This document shows, in pieces, positions 5,552 to 15,860 of a DNA stretch of 42,080 nt. Below the pieces are notes generated by a model. That model saw only the letters and a program-made list of their open reading frames with translations. It made no database searches and had not been told where the DNA came from. The DNA is from Anaerolinea sp. (GTDB lineage: Bacteria; Chloroflexota; Anaerolineae; UBA4142). How positions within the stretch are numbered: position 1 is the first letter of the stretch; the number at the start of each line of letters is the position of its first letter. The stretch spans positions 1 through 42,080 of the forward strand of contig DYLA01000004.1 of NCBI GenBank assembly GCA_020722265.1. Direction: 5' to 3'. Both the position numbers and the translations under genes were made by a program.

Positions 5552-6544
5552 CTAACGTTCATCGGGGATGAGTTGGAATGTGCCGCACCCGAAATGCGTT
5601 TGCTTGCCGATGTGAAGAATGGACGCCAGTTCGAGGTAGGGCACGAGTGCGGCCGGAATCGTCCAGAAAGTTTGCGTGCCGATCCATCGCCCGGGGAAGC
5701 CGCGCGGCGATGGTTCGAGGGTGTGTCGCTGGAGCGTGCCAGCGGGGGGGTGCGCTTGTTCCAAGGCGAGCCAGATGGCGGTCTGTTCGTCCGGGGTGAG
5801 GAGTGCCCAGACATCGGAGGGCTGGGCGCGCTTGCCCGGCAGGAACAGCGTCATTCGTTCCATCAGCGCGTCAACGAGCGTTTGCAGCGTGGGTACCTCG
5901 TTCAAATCGAAGGGGGTGAGCCAGGTCAAGCGATGAAAGGGGCGCGGTTTTTGGGGCGCGAAGGATAGTCCCTCTGCCCACTGGCTTGGCGTGACGCGCT
6001 GCTCCGAGAGCAAACGCCCCGCGCTGACGACCGGTTCCCACCGCGCCCCGCGCGCCGCGTAAATGGCCGGAATCTCAAAGCGTCCCCACACGCTGTAGGC
6101 GCGATGCCATCGCTCATCGGTGAGCGTTGTGGCGTACTCCATCGCTGGCAAAATCGTTTCGAGGAACAAGCCGTGCTCCGCACTGTCGCCCAGCAGTTTG
6201 AGTTCCCACAGAATCGTCTCACCCTCTCCGTAACTTCGTTTGGCCGGGTAGGCGAACAAGACCGATTCCAGTGGCCACGATGGCAGCGTGGGCGCGTTGT
6301 GCTCTTCGAACTTTTTCTTCTCGGTTTGCCGATCCGGCGAACGGGCGGCTGCCGCGTCCTCCCACGCGGTCAGCGCGTCGCGCCACTCGCGCGCCTGGGG
6401 CGTGGGCAGCCGGCGGACGATGAGCGTACCGAGGGTTTGGGACAATTCGAGTGGGAAATAGCGCGGCAGGTGGACGAGGGGACTGGTCACGCGCCAGACG
6501 ATGAGATAGCGGATGAGGTTAACCGGACTGATAAAATTCCACAT
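5552..6544 (-). CDS. cas6: Cas6-like crRNA-processing endoribonuclease (RAMP)
   Basis: C-terminal G-rich loop HIGKQTHFGCGTF (GxxxxxGxG), LTWLTP strand, WELKLLG, GRWIG typical of Cas6 C-terminal RRM; last gene of an overlapping operon with the Cas7 fusion. Confidence 0.8.
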   Translation of the reverse strand: MWNFISPVNLIRYLIVWRVTSPLVHLPRYFPLELSQTLGTLIVRRLPTPQAREWRDALTAWEDAAAARSPDRQTEKKKFEEHNAPTLPSWPLESVLFAYPAKRSYGEGETILWELKLLGDSAEHGLFLETILPAMEYATTLTDERWHRAYSVWGRFEIPAIYAARGARWEPVVSAGRLLSEQRVTPSQWAEGLSFAPQKPRPFHRLTWLTPFDLNEVPTLQTLVDALMERMTLFLPGKRAQPSDVWALLTPDEQTAIWLALEQAHPPAGTLQRHTLEPSPRGFPGRWIGTQTFWTIPAALVPYLELASILHIGKQTHFGCGTFQLIPDER

Positions 6545-7460
6545 AGCGGACTAGCGTGTAGAGAAGACTGACTTGGGATTTAGACCACTGGCGAATTTTC
6601 CACGCGCTCAACATATCTTTGGCTTCCTGATTCAGCAAACCGAGGAGGCGTCCCCAGTAGAATTGCGCTTCGCCGGTCGCGTCGTCGTCTGCCGTCAAGA
6701 GTTTGTAGAGGATTTTTTGTTCGTGCGGCGGAAGCATCGTGCGGAACACCGTCGCCATATCGAGCATCCGCAGGAATTCTGACGCTTCGAAGGTGAGCAC
6801 GCCTTCGCGTTCGTAATAGCGTGGGTGGAAGACATAGTGCGGCGCGGCGAAAAAGCGGACCCACAGCCGATTCATCGCCAGGCGCGCTTCGTCGTGGATG
6901 ATGCGGCAGAGGATTTCGCCCATCGTCGAGTCTTTGCCGGTCGTTGGGGGACAGATTTGAATCAACCCCCGGAGATCGCCGCCGTGATAGAGGGCGAGTT
7001 CTCGCAGCCAGGGCTGCAACTCGCGATAGTGCAATATCAGCAAGAAACGCTGGGCGTCATGAATGTACAATCCGAGCGCGCGACTCGCGCTCGCATCGGC
7101 TCGCAGCGGCTTGGGCAACTCGGTCACGTAACCCCAAATGACGACCGCGCGACGCGCCAGCGCGTACAGCCCCCAGGCATCGTCCAGGATCGTTTGACAG
7201 GTGGCGCAGTACTGATCGTTGACGCGCGCATAGACCCAGCAGCGCAGACAGGGACCGTCGAGCGCAGAGGGAGGCGCACCGAGTGGAGCAGAGAGGGGCG
7301 CAGGAGGAATCCTTTGACTGCGGACTCGCTCCTGCGTCCCTCCGATTTCCGCCGAGGCGTCACGGGGCGCTTGCCTCTTGTCACTGTTCACATAGCGCAG
7401 CGTGGCGAGCAATTCGGCGCCGTCGCGGCAGCGACGAATCCAATCAAACGGACTGTACAT
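6519..7460 (-). CDS. Putative highly truncated, catalytically dead Cas10-like large subunit
   Basis: CxxC-x10-CxxC Zn finger (CLRC...CATC), then a palm-like segment (AVVIWGYV ... LYIHDAQRFLLIL where YxGGDD would be expected) and a helical C-terminus; overlaps both neighbouring cas genes. Assignment is inferred from context and weak motif order. Confidence 0.55.
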   Translation of the reverse strand: MYSPFDWIRRCRDGAELLATLRYVNSDKRQAPRDASAEIGGTQERVRSQRIPPAPLSAPLGAPPSALDGPCLRCWVYARVNDQYCATCQTILDDAWGLYALARRAVVIWGYVTELPKPLRADASASRALGLYIHDAQRFLLILHYRELQPWLRELALYHGGDLRGLIQICPPTTGKDSTMGEILCRIIHDEARLAMNRLWVRFFAAPHYVFHPRYYEREGVLTFEASEFLRMLDMATVFRTMLPPHEQKILYKLLTADDDATGEAQFYWGRLLGLLNQEAKDMLSAWKIRQWSKSQVSLLYTLVRYVEFYQSG

Positions 7461-10400
7461 TCAACGCGGTCTGCAACTCGGAATAGTGGGCGATGACTCC
7501 GGGTTCCAGCCATTCGCTCGCGCGGAAAGGCTGGCGCCACGCGGTCTCGTCCTGCCCGGTGTAGTGTTTGCTCCAATCGATGAGGAAACTGTCTGGGAGG
7601 AGGCGCAGGCGCAGACTGCCCAAGCCCAGGTGCCGGCAGCGTCCCAATTTGTGCGCGAGGTTCGATTCGAGCACGACGCACCAGACCAAGCGCTGGAGTT
7701 CTTGCCGTTCCAGATTCCAAAAGCGAATCGTAAAGCGCGCACGCGCGCCCGGCAAAATCGCGCGCAGGTAACTGGCTTGCGCGGTGGTGGGCTGGAAATC
7801 GTTCGCGCGTTTGACGATGGGCGCGAGGGGCGCGTGGAGGAACAATCGCCACGTGTTGGCGATGCGATGCAGCGGTACGGCTTTGCCGGCTTGGTGACTC
7901 CATTGCCCGTTGGCGAACGTCCAACCCGAGTATGGATACGGCACTTGGAACCACGCGAGGTCGGGCGATTCGAACAACGCAAAGCCGAAGGCGAGACGTC
8001 CCATAATCGCGTTGTTCTGCCCCAGACCGACCCAGCCGAACAAACTGTCCACGGGATTCAAGTGGTGCAAGTCCTCGCTCGCTTTAGCGGAATCGCTGGC
8101 GATGGCGTAGAGGTGGCGCAGCATCCCCTTGAGACTGCGACTCGGCAGGGCGTAGGTGCGCGTCGCGGGACGGAGGTCCGCTTCGGCAGGCGCCATCGAG
8201 AACGCGTCCCAGCCGTTGACGGTTCCATCGGCGAGTGTAGCGCGGAACGAAGGTTCTCCGCTCTCGCGGACGTGGAGCGGTGTCAAGACCTCTGCCTCCA
8301 CTGCCAAGGTGCCGCAATAGCCACCAAAGGCGCGGTGCGAGATAAAACCTGCCATCGCGCGCGGAGGCGTCTCGGCGACCGGTGTCGGCGGGGCGAACTT
8401 GCTGAGCGCGCTCAAGCGCGCGAGTGCGTCAGTGGCGGCTTGTTGTTTGAGCGTCAGAGTTTGCCATACTCCCGCGCGCGCGAGCGGCGCGTCGCCGAAC
8501 AGGCGAGTGGTCATGCCATCGGTTTGGCTGGTGAGCCACGTGATTTCGGCGACTTGGGCTTTGACCCAGCCAAAGCCACTTGTTTTTTCGCCGCCGAGTG
8601 GAACATCGCCGCGCTGCCAATCTTGGATGAGGTGAGCGAGGAAGGCGAGCGCTTCGAGGTTGGCTTCGGAAATGTCCTGCACATCCAGTTGACATTGGAA
8701 GACGAGGGGCGCGCCGTAGGCGAAGAGGTAATCGTGCTTGGCGGTTTCGACGGGGCGCCCGGTGGCGGGGTCCATTCGCACGCCGTCCATCGAGCACCAC
8801 GTTCGTTCGGGGGCGTGGGGGTCTTGGAGGTACGCGTCGGAGAAAAAGACGGCGCCGCGTTTGCCCTGCGCGCCGAAGAGATGGTCCAGCATCTGCGTCG
8901 TGCGCGGCGATTCGCCCCAGAGGGCTTTGAGCACTTGCGTGGCGCGCTTGCGGAGCGCGCCCTTGAGGGTGCTGCCGGGGATGTAGATTTCCCACGCGGC
9001 TTGTTCTTGCGTGGAGGGCGCCCAGGCGAGCATCCGCATAAACATCGTGTCGTACGGCTTGCCGTACTCGCGCGAGACGTCGCGGTTGAACGGTCCCCCG
9101 GCGCGAAAATCAACGTGATGCGGCTGCACCAACTCTTGGCGCACGCGCGCGCGATGCGCCTGGAGGAACGCGATAAAGTTGCGGTCGTTCACGATGCTCT
9201 TGCGGAGGTTGACCGGGTGAAGCATATGTTGATAGCGCACGCGGCGGTGTTCTTCGAGGAACGTGCGCCACGCCGCGGCGGTGATCCCTTCGGGTGGCTG
9301 GTTGCGATTGTTCCATTGCGCCTCGCTGAGTTTGCCTTCGAGGAGGAGCGTTTTGATGCGCATGTGTTGTTCACGGTTGGCAATTTCCGCGTCCACCCAG
9401 GCATCGCTTTGCAGTAGTGTGATCTGCTGTTCCACTTGGAGATAGAGCCCGGGGAGAATCGGCTTGCACGCGTCCGCGAAAATCTGGGTGAGCGCGGCTT
9501 CGTTCTGAATGTTCGCTGCCACGCCTGCTTCGAGCGCGGGATCGAGTCCGAGCGCGTGTGTGAGTTCGAGCCACGCCTCGCGATTGAACTGGGGCGCGCC
9601 GCCGCGCTGGCGTTCCATCACTTCGAGAATGCGCTTTGCCATATTGGCTTTGTCGCCGAGCGCGTCTTTGAGCGCGGCTTCGGCGGCGGCTTGGCTGGGG
9701 AAGGGTTGGTCGCACAGTGGTTTCGCCGCGTCGAGCACTTTTTGTGAGAGGGGGAATTTGCCTTTGCCCAATTTGGCGAGCGCGGCGGCGCGCAGCGTCC
9801 AAGTCTCTCCCTCGCCGCCGCAGCGGTCTTGCAGCCACACCGCGAGGACGCGGGGCAAATAGTCGGTAAAACGACGCTGCCAATCTTCCGGGCTGATGAT
9901 CGGACCGCCGATGACCATTGCCAGACGCTGGCGGACGGATTCGGGGAGCGCGCGCATCGCTTCGATGAGGAGGCGTCCTTCGATGGCGGCGAACGCCGGC
10001 ACTTCGGGGTCTACTTTGCCCCAGTTCCATCCGACGAGGACGGGATTGACGGCGTTGAATGTCAGTTTGATGCGGAGATGATTCGCGCCGGTCGAGAGGG
10101 TGGGCAGCGTGGCGGGCGTGTCTAAGGGCAAGTCCATTTCGAGGCGGACGCGTCCAAGTCCCTTGCTCTTGCCTGCGCCGAACCAAAAGCGACCTTCCTT
10201 CAATTCCTGGAGCGCATAGTACAGCCGCGCCGCATTGTCCTCTTTTTGCAGTACCGCATCGTTGACCGACATTGCGAAATCGAAGGCGGCGTTGCGGAAA
10301 AGAGTCTCCATTTTGTAATTCGCGTTCGCTTCGGCTGCCCAGCGGTCTTCGTCGAGGCGGAGTCCCATCCGCAAATCGAAAAAGTGATCACGTGGGTACG

Positions 10401-10674
10401 ACTCTTTTTGCAATCGGCACTCGACGCGGGTGATCAGCCCCGCTGGCAACGGGTCGCCGTACAGACGCAACCACAGCCGGTTGAGTAAACCAACGTTCCT
10501 GCCATCGCGCGATTGCCCGATGAACGCGTCCATCAACGCCTGCGCCGTACCGGAGATTTCACCAGCCAGCGAGACGAGTTGTTGCGTTCCATCGCCGTCG
10601 CGGGTGAACAGCGTTTTGCGCGCGTTGCCACGGAAGATTGGTGTCTCGGCGATAAGTTGTCCGTGTAAAAGCAT
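7444..10674 (-). CDS. Single-chain type III effector with three fused Cas7 (Csm3-like RAMP) domains and a large helical insertion (Cas7-11-like), ~1076 aa
   Basis: Three RAMP first strands (LIAETPIFRG, FNAVNPVLVG, AEVLTPLHV), two Cas7 signatures (IPGSTLKGALR, LPSRSLKGMLR), LFG..G motifs (HLFGAQGKRGAVFFSDA, SLFGWV..MGRLAF), three G-rich loops (FGAGKSKGLG, LGGEKTSGFG, LGRCRHLGLG); ATG 10674 follows SD GGAGG. Confidence 0.9.
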   Translation of the reverse strand: MLLHGQLIAETPIFRGNARKTLFTRDGDGTQQLVSLAGEISGTAQALMDAFIGQSRDGRNVGLLNRLWLRLYGDPLPAGLITRVECRLQKESYPRDHFFDLRMGLRLDEDRWAAEANANYKMETLFRNAAFDFAMSVNDAVLQKEDNAARLYYALQELKEGRFWFGAGKSKGLGRVRLEMDLPLDTPATLPTLSTGANHLRIKLTFNAVNPVLVGWNWGKVDPEVPAFAAIEGRLLIEAMRALPESVRQRLAMVIGGPIISPEDWQRRFTDYLPRVLAVWLQDRCGGEGETWTLRAAALAKLGKGKFPLSQKVLDAAKPLCDQPFPSQAAAEAALKDALGDKANMAKRILEVMERQRGGAPQFNREAWLELTHALGLDPALEAGVAANIQNEAALTQIFADACKPILPGLYLQVEQQITLLQSDAWVDAEIANREQHMRIKTLLLEGKLSEAQWNNRNQPPEGITAAAWRTFLEEHRRVRYQHMLHPVNLRKSIVNDRNFIAFLQAHRARVRQELVQPHHVDFRAGGPFNRDVSREYGKPYDTMFMRMLAWAPSTQEQAAWEIYIPGSTLKGALRKRATQVLKALWGESPRTTQMLDHLFGAQGKRGAVFFSDAYLQDPHAPERTWCSMDGVRMDPATGRPVETAKHDYLFAYGAPLVFQCQLDVQDISEANLEALAFLAHLIQDWQRGDVPLGGEKTSGFGWVKAQVAEITWLTSQTDGMTTRLFGDAPLARAGVWQTLTLKQQAATDALARLSALSKFAPPTPVAETPPRAMAGFISHRAFGGYCGTLAVEAEVLTPLHVRESGEPSFRATLADGTVNGWDAFSMAPAEADLRPATRTYALPSRSLKGMLRHLYAIASDSAKASEDLHHLNPVDSLFGWVGLGQNNAIMGRLAFGFALFESPDLAWFQVPYPYSGWTFANGQWSHQAGKAVPLHRIANTWRLFLHAPLAPIVKRANDFQPTTAQASYLRAILPGARARFTIRFWNLERQELQRLVWCVVLESNLAHKLGRCRHLGLGSLRLRLLPDSFLIDWSKHYTGQDETAWRQPFRASEWLEPGVIAHYSELQTALNVQSV

Positions 10675-10691: not shown

Positions 10692-10813
10692 AGCCAAACT
10701 TTCGCACCCTAGACCCAGCGATAGGGAAGAGCGGTTGAGACGCCCCGCCGGGGCGTCTTGGGCTTGAGCCTGTCCGTTGGCTGGTCCAAGCGTACAGGTG
10801 CGAAATCTTGGCT
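10692..10813 (-). other. Structured 5' leader of the cas operon (long closing stem enclosing a REP-like hairpin)
   Basis: AGCCAAGATTTCGCACC pairs with GGTGCGAAAGTTTGGCT (15 Watson-Crick pairs, 1 GU, 1 mismatch); internal perfect hairpin AGACGCCCC-GGC-GGGGCGTCT at 10738-10758. Confidence 0.5.
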
Positions 10814-10840
10814 AAGTAGATTGAACGTGCAAGCAACTCG

Positions 10841-10869
10841 ATTATACCACCTATTCCAGTACAATGCAA
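10841..10869 (-). promoter_or_regulatory. Sigma70-type promoter of the cas operon
   Basis: TTGCAT-N17-TATAAT with extended TG on the minus strand. Confidence 0.7.
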
Positions 10870-10874
10870 CAAGT

Positions 10875-10903
10875 TTGGAAAAATCGCGTGAACGCGGTAG
10901 AAT
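10875..10903 (+). promoter_or_regulatory. Divergent promoter for the oxidoreductase alpha subunit
   Basis: TTGGAA-N17-TAGAAT upstream of SD GAAAGGAG and ATG 10926. Confidence 0.55.
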
Positions 10904-10925
10904 GGTAAATGAAAGGAGAGTTTCG

Positions 10926-12050
10926 ATGCGCGAATTTATGGATGGCGCGGAGGCGATTGTGCGCGGCGCGCTGGCGGCGGGCTGCAATTTTTTCGCGGGG
11001 TATCCGATCACGCCGGCGACGCCGATCCTCTTGCGGATGCTGCGCGAGTTACCCAAGACAGGCGGCATCGGAATTCAGGGAGAAGACGAAATTGCGAGTA
11101 TCGGGATGTGCATCGGCGCGGCGATGACCGGCGCAAAAGCGATGACCGCGACGAGTGGTCCGGGCATCAGTTTGTATTCCGAGAATATCGGCATGGCGAT
11201 AATGGGCGAGGTGCCGCTGGTGATCGTGGATGTGATGCGGCTGGGTCCCGCGACCGGTGGCGCGACGACGGTGGCGCAGGGGGATGTGCAATTCTTGCGC
11301 TGGGTGACGAGCGGCGGTTTTCCGATCATCGCGTTGTGCCCCAGCAGCATTGCTGATTGTTACACGCTGACGCAGCGCGCGTTCAATCTGGCGGAGCGCT
11401 TTCGTACGCCGGTCTTTCTCGCGACCGATAAGGAGATGGTGACCGCGCAGCAGAGCGTAGAGACGGACGCGTTCCAAACGCTGCCGCGTGTCGAACGCGT
11501 GGGTGCACCAGCAGACGCCGAGTTCGTCCCGTACCATGTCAAGAAACTTGCGGATGTGCCCGCGTTCGCGCCGATTGGAGGGATGCACCTCACGCGGTTT
11601 ACCACTTCGATGCACGACGAGCGCGGGATGCTGACCAAGATTCGCGTGAACGTGAACAAGACGAGCCGGCACTTGTATCAGAAAATCGAAGCGCACTGCG
11701 ACGAGTTGGAATTCGTCACGTGGGACGCGCAGGAGGGGGCGGCGACGTTGGTCGTGAGTTACGGCATCAGTGCGCGTTCCGCGCTTGAAGCGGTGCGCTT
11801 GGCGCGCGCAACGGGGGCGCGCGTGTCATCGCTCGTCGTCCAATCGTTGTGGCCCCCGCCCGCGCGCGCGTTGCGCGTTGCCTTGCGCGGCGTCTCGCGC
11901 GTCATCGTCCCGGAGTTGAACTTGGGTCAGTATCGGTTGGAGATCGAGCGCGCGGCGTGTTCGCTCGATCCGCGCCCGCAAGTGATCGGCGTGAATCGCG
12001 TGGATGGTGAGTTGATTGCGCCGGAGGAGATCGCAGAACTAGTCGCCTAG
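10926..12050 (+). CDS. 2-oxoacid:ferredoxin oxidoreductase alpha subunit
   Basis: FFAGYPITPAT, EDEIAS, TATSGPG, RxGPATG, VPELNLGQY. Confidence 0.92.
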   Translation: MREFMDGAEAIVRGALAAGCNFFAGYPITPATPILLRMLRELPKTGGIGIQGEDEIASIGMCIGAAMTGAKAMTATSGPGISLYSENIGMAIMGEVPLVIVDVMRLGPATGGATTVAQGDVQFLRWVTSGGFPIIALCPSSIADCYTLTQRAFNLAERFRTPVFLATDKEMVTAQQSVETDAFQTLPRVERVGAPADAEFVPYHVKKLADVPAFAPIGGMHLTRFTTSMHDERGMLTKIRVNVNKTSRHLYQKIEAHCDELEFVTWDAQEGAATLVVSYGISARSALEAVRLARATGARVSSLVVQSLWPPPARALRVALRGVSRVIVPELNLGQYRLEIERAACSLDPRPQVIGVNRVDGELIAPEEIAELVA

Positions 12051-14431: not shown

Positions 14432-14537
14432 TTTGTCCTGACAAAAAAGATTGCCGAGCCCGACGTTCTTGGCGCGGCGCGTTAACCGCCCATACTATAG
14501 CACAAATCGGTTTATAACGCAACAGGAGCAAAGTACT

Positions 14538-15860
14538 GTGACTGGAGAACCAATCGCCACCTACCGCAATCCGCAAAAACCACGCTATCCCTTTTGCCCC
14601 GGCTGTTCGCACGCGCTCGTACTCGACCACCTCAACGCCGCGCTCGTCAAACTCCAACTTGACCCGCGTAAGACGGTGATCGTCACCGACATCGGTTGCG
14701 TGGGGATGAGCGATCAATATTTCGACGTGAACGCGTTTCACGGTTTACACGGGCGCGCGGTGACGTACGCGACCGGCATCAAACTCGCCAATCCCGATCT
14801 GCGCGTCATCGCGCTGATCGGCGATGGCGGTGTGGGCATTGGTGGACATCACTTGCTCAACGCGGCGCGGCGCAACATCGGCATCACGGTGCTTGTGTTC
14901 AACAATTTGAATTTTGGAATGACCGGCGGCGAACATTCGGTCACGACGCCCTACGGCGCGATCACTTCGACGACGCGCGGTGGCAATCTGGAGCGTCCGC
15001 TCGATGTGTGCGCGACGGTCGCGGTGAATGGCGCGGCGTTCGTCTATCGCGGCACCGCGTTCGACAAGGGTTTGCCGGACCGAATCGCGGAGGCCATCGA
15101 GACACCTGGCTTTGCGCTGCTCGACATCTGGGAACTGTGCACCGCGTACTATGTGCCGAACAACAGGTTCTCGAAAAACGCGCTGTTGCAAACGATGCAG
15201 GGGTTGGATTTTCGCGTTGGCGTCCTGCAGCACGCGGACCGTCCTGAACTGGCGCGCGCGTACCGCCAAGAAATCTCCAATCCCCAATCCCCAATCGCTC
15301 CACCGCGATCCATCGAGCAAAAGTACAACAGCGCGCTCACGCAAACGACGCGCCTCATCCTCGCCGGCGCGGCGGGCGGCAAGGTGCGTTCCGCCGCGAG
15401 CGCGCTCGCCATCGGCGCGATGTACTGCGGCTTGTGGGCGACGCAGCGCGATGATTATCCAACGACAGTGATGAGCGGCTATTCGGTCTCGGAAGTGATT
15501 TTGAGCCGCGAGGAAATTTTGTATATGGGCATCGAAAAGCCGGACATTCTGGCGGTGCTGTCGCCGGAAGGGCTGTCGCAGGCGCCGCGTCAACTGCGCG
15601 CGATGGACGAATCGCAAACGGTGTACGTTGTCCCCGAACTCGCGGAGCAAGTGGTCACGCGCGCGCGGAAAATCGTCTTCGACTTGGCGCGTGTCAAGCC
15701 GGCGCGCAAATCGCTGGCGGTGATGGCGACCGCTGCCATCGTCCGCCACGCGAATTTGTACCCGCTCGACGCGTTCCGCGAGGCGATCCGCGCCGGGCAG
15801 CGCGCGGAGATCGCGGCGGAGAATTTGCAGGCGGTGGACGCGAGCGAGGCAATCCTGTAG
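14538..15860 (+). CDS. 2-oxoacid:ferredoxin oxidoreductase beta-gamma fusion
   Basis: FCPGCSH, DIGC, HGLHGRA, TPP motif GDGG...NN, GMTGGE; C-terminal gamma domain LILAGAAGG...YSVSEV; GTG start after AGGAG. Confidence 0.88.
   Translation: MTGEPIATYRNPQKPRYPFCPGCSHALVLDHLNAALVKLQLDPRKTVIVTDIGCVGMSDQYFDVNAFHGLHGRAVTYATGIKLANPDLRVIALIGDGGVGIGGHHLLNAARRNIGITVLVFNNLNFGMTGGEHSVTTPYGAITSTTRGGNLERPLDVCATVAVNGAAFVYRGTAFDKGLPDRIAEAIETPGFALLDIWELCTAYYVPNNRFSKNALLQTMQGLDFRVGVLQHADRPELARAYRQEISNPQSPIAPPRSIEQKYNSALTQTTRLILAGAAGGKVRSAASALAIGAMYCGLWATQRDDYPTTVMSGYSVSEVILSREEILYMGIEKPDILAVLSPEGLSQAPRQLRAMDESQTVYVVPELAEQVVTRARKIVFDLARVKPARKSLAVMATAAIVRHANLYPLDAFREAIRAGQRAEIAAENLQAVDASEAIL

Follow-up and report, generated by a model that had tools for sequence, protein, structure and literature searches.

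The window analysed here is a stretch of 42,080 nucleotides from the assembly of an Anaerolinea sp. (GCA_020722265.1, contig DYLA01000004.1, positions 1 to 42,080 of the forward strand), and it carries a type III-I CRISPR-Cas module whose effector, Cas7-11i, holds a long and mostly helical insert within its second Cas7 domain. The cas7-11i open reading frame occupies 7444..10674 on the minus strand, with its ATG start at 10674 and its stop codon within 7444-7446, and encodes a gRAMP effector of 1076 amino acids (aa). The protein matches NCBIfam NF049957 at 1833.1 bits (cut-off 800), residues 1-1075 aligning to positions 1-1075 of the 1076-position profile; it is a full-length Cas7-11i and an ordinary member of this recently named family. 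Pfam contributes RAMPs PF03787 alone (83.8 bits over the whole protein, best stretch aa 563-705). Two genes follow on the same strand, namely cas10i (6519..7460, minus, 313 aa; NF049958 at 387.2 bits, cut-off 175) and then cas6i (5552..6544, minus, 330 aa; NF049959 at 283.3 bits, cut-off 160).

Cas7-11i was introduced in the 2025 update of the CRISPR-Cas classification (Makarova et al. 2025, PMC12669027). The part of its text available to us describes three Cas7 domains plus a putative Cas11 domain, the absence of the N-terminal Cas7 and of the C-terminal insertion of type III-E Cas7-11, conserved aspartates in every Cas7 domain and an AF3 model of the effector with Cas10i, and gives Desulfonema magnum WP_207677910 as the type III-I prototype. 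The helical segment studied here is the region already published there as the putative Cas11 domain. The family is well populated. A protein collection clustered at 90% holds 485 relatives at E<=0.001, including a 1076-aa protein identical to that of the window, and the best 120 of the 485 are 1066-1102 aa long and, its own protein excepted, 64-76% identical to it; a 50% representative library holds 533 at the same threshold. With one genome per species, 228 loci encode a relative. Among the best 80 of these, mostly from Anaerolineae/Chloroflexota and Desulfobacterota metagenome-assembled genomes, a cas10i homolog lies downstream in 74 and a cas6i homolog in 71, while the loci without one either reach a contig edge or gave no match.

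We modelled the full-length protein with AlphaFold 2 (AF2) on a 78-sequence alignment and obtained a predicted local distance difference test score (pLDDT) of 81.1 and a predicted template modelling score (pTM) of 0.76, with low confidence at residues 15-49 (pLDDT <50) and 209-232 (about 55). In the model, domain 1, with strands from 2-9 to 174-180, is followed by a strand at 198-208, a low-confidence coil and a mostly helical stretch, after which come a hairpin (521-526/532-540), D542 and a helix at 567-586 that carries IPGSTLKGALR. On the DNA, where all parts of the effector lie on the minus strand, Cas7 domain 1 (aa 1-185) corresponds to 10120..10674, the first strand of domain 2 (aa 198-222, HLRIKLTFNAVNPVLVGWNWGKVD), N-terminal to the insert, to 10009..10083, the hairpin and catalytic loop of domain 2 (aa 521-549, delimited by AF2 and hhalign) to 9028..9114, its core (aa 550-760, by PF03787 and hhalign) to 8395..9027, and domain 3 (aa 775-1076, by hhalign) to 7447..8352.

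Superposition of the model on type III-E Cas7-11e structures shows which Cas7 domains these are. In 24 of 41 rows the model pairs over residues 1-1076 with DiCas7-11 404-1553 or the equivalents in other proteins, and domains 1, 2 and 3 are thus the counterparts of Cas7.2, Cas7.3 and Cas7.4, the last without its INS region; domain 1, proposed in the initial annotation as a possible handle binder in place of Cas5, is in structure a match to Cas7.2. Profile comparison with hhalign yields the same assignment for aa 2-185 against DiCas7-11 405-579 (probability 92.7%, E 4.2e-7), for aa 539-707 against 651-820 (97.7%, E 1.7e-12) and for domain 3 against Cas7.4 (99.4%). The other 17 rows cover domains 2 and 3 only and start at model residues 193-198, opposite residues 621/622 of the Di protein or 662-668 of the Sb protein. 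In DiCas7-11 the linker L2 ends at 401, and D429 and D654 are the catalytic residues of Cas7.2 and Cas7.3 as given in the accessible part of 10.1101/2022.08.17.504292, which places the start of Cas7.3 at position 622; strand 198-208 therefore takes the place of the first strand of Cas7.3. A strand-plus-Pro motif opens all three Cas7 domains, and the segment with the first strand (aa 198-222) has an identity of 0.80 among the long forms of the family, which keep the whole insert. These data support a nested insert, placed within the second Cas7 domain so that the first strand precedes it and the catalytic loop follows. The initial annotation, which had proposed this nesting from the motifs NPVLVG (aa 210-215), YD(542)TMFMR (aa 541-547) and IPGSTLKGALR (aa 565-575), is borne out in its coordinates and in the topology, and its segment at 9055-10011, or aa 222-540, is real and conserved.

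The limits of the insert can be narrowed somewhat. The hairpin at 521-526/532-540 forms in the full-length model and is absent when aa 216-545 are modelled alone, so that it belongs to the Cas7 fold and the separable insert comprises about aa 223-520, or some 298 aa. The segment is separable because it folds on its own: the isolated model of aa 216-545 reaches a pLDDT of 84.9 and a pTM of 0.60 and reproduces the helices of the full-length model, the pTM suggesting mobile sub-parts in the isolated segment. Its secondary structure consists of about 15 helices together with two strands, 286-293 and 354-361, and the segment is accordingly not all-helical as first described. Neither is it distinctively rich in Ala and Leu (13.4% and 11.2%, compared with 12.0% and 12.4% in the rest of the protein); only Glu, Gln, Lys and Arg are mildly enriched. 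The expectation of a separable domain stands insofar as the segment folds alone, but it is a composite of at least three modules and not one domain.

We refer to the first part of the insert as module A (aa 224-421) and to the second as module B (aa 422-520, 9115..9411). Module A starts with N-terminal helices (aa 224-285, 9820..10005) that carry a predicted docking face for Cas10i. These are followed by unit 1 (aa 286-352, 9619..9819), which consists of a strand, two short helices and a long helix, and by unit 2 (aa 353-421, 9412..9618), in which AF2 gives a similar pattern of a strand at 354-361 and helices at 365-375, 379-387, 392-403 and 407-422. With a net charge of -4 unit 2 is acidic, it lacks conserved basic positions, and its profile (aa 353-425) matched neither unit 1 nor the INS repeat described below (hhalign probability <1%). 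Module B was delimited from the alignment; it is helical, present family-wide and basic (net charge +4), and Lys or Arg is conserved at eight of its positions. AF2 gives it about three long helices, joined directly to the catalytic hairpin. Among 67 long forms the mean pairwise identity is 0.61 for aa 224-421, 0.71 for aa 422-540 and 0.67-0.74 for the Cas7 cores.

The two modules differ in their distribution. When ten diverse relatives were aligned, 7 of 10 lacked precisely aa ~224-421 and kept aa 422-540, in which W426, H437, F472, H476, N496, D497, E514, D522 and R524 are invariant. One of these seven, the short form P0123 (877 aa), scores 1373 bits with NF049957, above the cut-off, and the short forms P0129, P0134 and P0140 score 433-645 bits, below it; metagenome loci provide two further short forms with the same gap (L081/L082, 877 aa, and L083, 901 aa). 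In a maximum-likelihood tree, rooted at the midpoint and with long branches flagged by the tool, all long forms make up one clade (100/100) and P0123 is nested inside it (99/99), a placement that indicates a single gain of module A followed by a loss. On the evidence of these sequences module A is shown to be clade-specific: it apparently arose with the main Cas7-11i clade, at its base, and some lineages have since lost it. Look-ups of aa 224-421 and aa 405-540 in the ESM Atlas returned scores of 0.77-0.78 to tiny clusters only and were uninformative. One distant short form without module A, P0132 (987 aa), has another insertion of about 85 Lys/Glu-rich residues opposite window aa 549-560, in the stretch that links the strand following the catalytic Asp to the IPGST helix. 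The window protein has there a loop whose residues 551-558 are modelled with pLDDT <50, and aa 549-560 may be a second insertion hot spot of the same Cas7 domain.

The residue that follows the insert and the hairpin, D542 (codon 9049-9051), is invariant in 78 of 78 aligned sequences. Profile alignment pairs K539-P540-Y541-D542 with R651-G652-T653-(D654A) of DiCas7-11, whose position 654 reads Ala because the deposited protein is the D654A mutant, and D542 is by this alignment the counterpart of the proven catalytic D654. The Csm3-type catalytic position predicted for D542 is thus upheld, both by conservation and by exact alignment. A conserved aspartate is found in every Cas7 domain of the window protein. 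In domain 3, D823 (codon 8206-8208) is present in 75 of 78 sequences and aligned to an Ala of Cas7.4 in the Di protein. In domain 1 the column opposite D429 holds Q31, and the candidate catalytic residues D26 (codon 10597-10599) and D28 (codon 10591-10593) lie 3-5 residues upstream; each of them occurs in 69 of 78 sequences, and the distant short forms have neither. Domain 1 had been described as lacking a matching Asp, a statement that these two residues make unsafe. Domain 2 had been proposed as the likeliest RNase site; since D823 and, in the long forms, D26/D28 are conserved as well, it is better regarded as one of two or three likely cleavage centres.

Part of module A resembles an element known from type III-E effectors. 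The D. magnum Cas7-11e (7zoq_B) contains three tandem units of about 63 aa in its INS region, and an iterated profile of this repeat, for which Pfam has no family, collected 13 copies in 7 of 57 Cas7-11e proteins. Compared with hhalign, the repeat profile matches aa 293-354 over 57-60 of 63 columns (probability 87.3-92.3%, E 5.5e-7 to 3.8e-6); a reversed alignment gave 0.4% and 20 column shuffles at most 4.8%. As a hidden Markov model (HMM) it matches 31 of 70 non-short Cas7-11i proteins at E<=0.01 and none of the 8 short ones, the sequences being related to each other so that these counts are not independent events; in five shuffled sets the best E values ranged from 0.047 to 2.7. In addition, a structural search over 48,161 chains gave its top match on the INS region of 7zoq_B, and the Cas7-11i family profile aligned aa 292-407 to the repeat region of the same chain below threshold. 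The reverse search, with the module A HMM run directly on Cas7-11e proteins, was marginal (best E 0.013, compared with 0.15 for reversed decoys), and modules A and B run with hhalign in three set-ups on the whole Cas7-11e alignment found nothing, the INS likeness being seen only with the dedicated repeat profile. By these sequence profiles aa 293-354 are homologous to the INS-domain repeat of some Cas7-11e proteins. The INS-type unit lies here inside Cas7 domain 2 and not in a thumb insertion of the last Cas7 domain, and domain 3 has no INS. In D. magnum Cas7-11e, according to the available text of PMC9935389, the insertion subdomains take the place of the Cas7.4 thumb and keep hold of the 3' part of the CRISPR RNA (crRNA) spacer. 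The Cas7-11e collection also showed other additions: many members have a cold-shock domain match PF00313 (e.g. P0279, P0292 and P0298), and two proteins of about 1900 aa (P0280 and P0281) have AAA/SMC-type ATPase matches (PF13304 and PF02463).

Complex prediction places Cas10i on module A. With alignments supplied for both chains (83 and 63 rows), the segment and Cas10i reached an ipSAE of 0.78 in 3 of 3 runs, while the best of three controls gave 0.00. At least 59% of the contacts agree between runs, and the partner is modelled with a pLDDT of at least 77. The ipSAE mark that we applied is reached by 116 of 157 solved complexes and by 2 of 215 mismatched pairs, counts that apply only roughly with user-supplied alignments. 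Since the copy of the Protein Data Bank (PDB) searched contains no solved relative of either Cas10i or Cas7-11i, the result is unlikely to reflect memory of a solved complex. The predicted interface comprises aa 226-228, 230, 232, 234, 246, 249-250, 252-260, 264, 272, 275-276, 279, 354-357 and 425 of the effector and residues 114, 136, 153-161, 226-242, 277-287 and 310 of Cas10i, and the N-terminal helices of module A are thereby predicted to dock Cas10i. The Cas10i homologs further share four invariant cysteines (C71, C74, C85 and C88), a pattern that suggests a zinc ribbon; a Cas10i profile run against PDB sequences matched only the zinc ribbon in ribosomal protein L37, at an insignificant E of 1.8.

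From these results we consider it fairly probable that the putative Cas11 region of Cas7-11i is a multi-part, separable appendage of about 298 aa, threaded into a Cas7.3-like domain between its first strand and the D542 hairpin. This account builds on direct observations: the protein belongs to the family, its domains are ordered as described, D542 is equivalent to D654, the insert is modular, module A has been gained and lost, and aa 293-354 are homologous to the INS repeat. Module B would sit beside the D542 active site, on the domain where the type III-E Cas11-like domain docks, and may act as a small subunit that lines or gates the target RNA; we infer this role because module B is basic, as conserved as the Cas7 cores and joined to the D542 hairpin, and because it is Cas7.3 that carries the insert. 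For comparison, the Cas11-like domain of D. magnum Cas7-11e docks between Cas7.3 and Cas7.4 near the catalytic Asp of Cas7.3, as stated in the accessible part of PMC9935389. Module A would be a later addition at the base of the main clade, lost in some lineages, in which the helices at aa 226-279 are predicted to clamp Cas10i and unit 1 (aa 293-354) might contact the RNA backbone or a duplex.

Several results weigh against this account or against parts of it. The short-form loci, without aa ~227-421, keep cas10i and cas6i immediately downstream, and the predicted docking face is therefore neither the sole nor an essential contact of Cas10i. The Cas10i proteins of two short forms share identities with the window's of 0.29 and 0.36 at the interface and 0.35 and 0.36 elsewhere, and 63 long-form partners average 0.49 and 0.44, so that the interface of the short-form partners is not clearly more diverged than the remainder; Y158 of Cas10i is nearly invariant and is H or D in both short-form partners (n=2). 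Co-variation of the Cas10i interface with the presence of module A is not clear-cut, with two independent short-form partners only. For the topology, the VIA superposition gives just the first and last aligned residue, and the placement of strand 198-208 was inferred from these ranges. The structural match to the INS region is poor, with a root-mean-square deviation of 12.6 Å and a Foldseek E of 0.33. Our literature search found no experimental, biochemical, RNA, activity or structural study of any type III-I system. On the Cas11 side, Pfam and NCBIfam gave no Cas11 family match for the protein or for the segment (segment Pfam at E<=10); the Pfam matches at E<=10 on the segment and its halves (TnpV, DUF6285 and a sensor domain) are noise. 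Profiles of the modules matched a 120-sequence alignment of Csm2 that started from the csm2 gene of this genome with a probability of at most 0.7%, and a 57-sequence Cas7-11e alignment including the Cas11-like domain with at most 0.8%. The fold comparison, which had the INS region of 7zoq_B as its top match, returned no Cas11 chain among the 50 matches listed.

How far do these negatives argue against a genuine Cas11? Canonical type III complexes have Cas11 subunits stacked on Cas10, and the segment, most plausibly module B, could be a highly diverged Cas11 homolog from a type III-D ancestor that was fused into the effector. Such an origin would fit the predicted binding of Cas10i, although this Cas11-type trait of contact with a Cas10 subunit is present by prediction only (ipSAE 0.78), and it would fit the available text of PMC12669027, which names the region a Cas11 or putative Cas11 domain. 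The profile test is also insensitive: in the positive control, Csm2 detected the accepted Cas11-like domain of Cas7-11e (Di 278-359) with a probability of only 3.9% (E 0.011), so that the negative result, from comparisons that covered Csm2 and Cas7-11e, is weak evidence. The Cas11-like domain proposed in the initial annotation found neither a profile nor a fold match in Csm2 or in the Cas11-like domain of Cas7-11e. Moreover, module B, with about three long helices, does not form a compact five-helix bundle, the face predicted for Cas10i is found in the clade-specific module A and not in the conserved module B, and part of module A is homologous to the INS repeat. We regard a true Cas11 ancestry as possible but unlikely. 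A bolder form of the nested-appendage account is that the type III-I "Cas11 domain" is not a Cas11 at all but an appendage assembled stepwise, from an ancient basic module and a later cassette of Cas10i clamp and INS repeat; this we put forward tentatively, as a serious possibility that falls short of probable. If it is right, an insertion into a Cas7 loop gave rise to small-subunit function independently. On the same reading, the occurrence of both type III-I and type III-E systems in Desulfonema magnum would point to an exchange of accessory modules between single-protein type III effectors.

Two further explanations concern where the segment lies and what it does. If strand 198-222 were part of domain 1 or of a linker, with domain 2 starting only at the 521-540 hairpin, the segment would lie between domains and copy the type III-E order Cas7.1-Cas11-Cas7.2. 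The range ends given by VIA in place of residue pairs, the pLDDT of about 55 at residues 209-232 and the profile of aa 186-224, which found no match in Cas7-11e (39 residues, too short to place), leave some room for this layout. The 17 domain-2-3 rows nevertheless start opposite the beginning of Cas7.3, the profile match of domain 1 stops at aa 185 opposite Di 579, a strand-plus-Pro motif stands at each domain start, and the domains correspond to Cas7.2-7.4 and not to Cas7.1-7.3, which means that the insert occupies another position than Cas11 does in type III-E; we find the inter-domain layout very improbable. Alternatively, the insert could be mainly a scaffold or regulator for Cas10i or another partner, without a direct RNA role, much as the INS of Cas7-11e is removable without loss of activity. 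The strong predicted Cas10i interface, the natural deletion of module A and the acidic unit 2 would suit such a role, yet it leaves unaccounted for a module B that is universally kept, is as conserved as the Cas7 cores (0.71 and 0.67-0.74), has eight conserved basic positions and is joined directly to the catalytic hairpin. This account, too, we find very improbable.

The surroundings of the module were also examined. We found no CRISPR array within the window. The sole array of the assembly (2.68 Mb, 209 contigs) is on another contig, a 5.2-kb one that it fills with at least 71 copies of 37-nt repeats ending in ATTGAAAC. The assembly also carries a canonical type III-A locus, with cas10/csm1, csm2, csm3, csm4, csm5, a CARF protein and a weak cas6 match, as well as a reverse transcriptase adjoining cas1; the other CRISPR loci and the array are on contigs C189 (locus L093, 1-7860), C1 (locus L094, 1-6900) and C43. 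The type III-I module comes without an array or adaptation genes and may share those found elsewhere in the assembly. Within the window, dnaA (TIGR00362, 529 bits) lies at 131-1594 on the minus strand, about 4 kb from the CRISPR-Cas module, which places the type III-I locus near a likely replication origin region; mutY and a GNAT acetyltransferase gene lie in between. Directly upstream of cas7-11i is a DegV/PlsY pair flanked by 2-oxoacid:acceptor oxidoreductase alpha/beta genes (10758-12050 and 14451-15860, both on the plus strand), which are ordinary metabolism and separate from the finding.

One effector, a stub Cas10 and a Cas6 make up type III-I, a compact RNA-guided system that is uncharacterised; compact type III effectors of the single-protein kind attract interest as tools for RNA targeting. 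For construct design, the natural deletion of about 198 aa of the helical region offers a template for a smaller effector, D542 is the counterpart of a proven catalytic residue, and the face predicted to hold Cas10i is at aa 226-279. The findings are relevant, too, to the question of how the repeated evolution of fused type III effectors re-created small-subunit functions. Beyond the available text of PMC12669027, the new detail is that the insert is nested and composite, that roughly 198 aa of it are clade-specific and were secondarily lost in natural deletion variants, that one part is homologous to the INS repeat and that a face for Cas10i is predicted.

Compared with known systems, the window protein is closest to type III-I Cas7-11i itself. 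It shares with that family the end-to-end profile match, the three Cas7 domains with a helical region, the adjacent cas10i and cas6i, a conserved Asp in each Cas7 domain and a Chloroflexota-like host lineage as reported for the family, and nothing sets it apart. The type III-E Cas7-11e proteins (DiCas7-11, SbCas7-11 and DmCas7-11; PDB 7wah, 7x7a and 7zol) have a Cas7.1 and an INS in the last Cas7, both of which the window protein lacks, and no homolog of their Cas11-like domain is detectable in it. Their helical module lies between Cas7.1 and Cas7.2, whereas here it is inside the Cas7.3 equivalent; they partner with Csx29 in place of Cas10i and Cas6i; and DiCas7-11 has Ala where the third domain here keeps D823. 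The type III-Dv Cas7-2x and Cas7-insertion (PDB 8s9t and 8s9x) are separate proteins, Cas7-2x without an insert of about 300 aa in its second domain, and in that system Cas5 and Cas11 are fused to each other in a further protein and Cas10 is complete. With the Cas11 small subunits (Csm2 PF03750, Cmr5 and the Cas11-like domain of Cas7-11e) the insert has in common its helical character, a predicted contact with a Cas10-family protein and an attachment to the Cas7 domain beside which the type III-E Cas11-like domain docks. It differs from them in its size (about 298 aa compared with about 100-150 aa), in its beta strands and INS-type repeat, and in that no sequence, profile or fold match to them was found.

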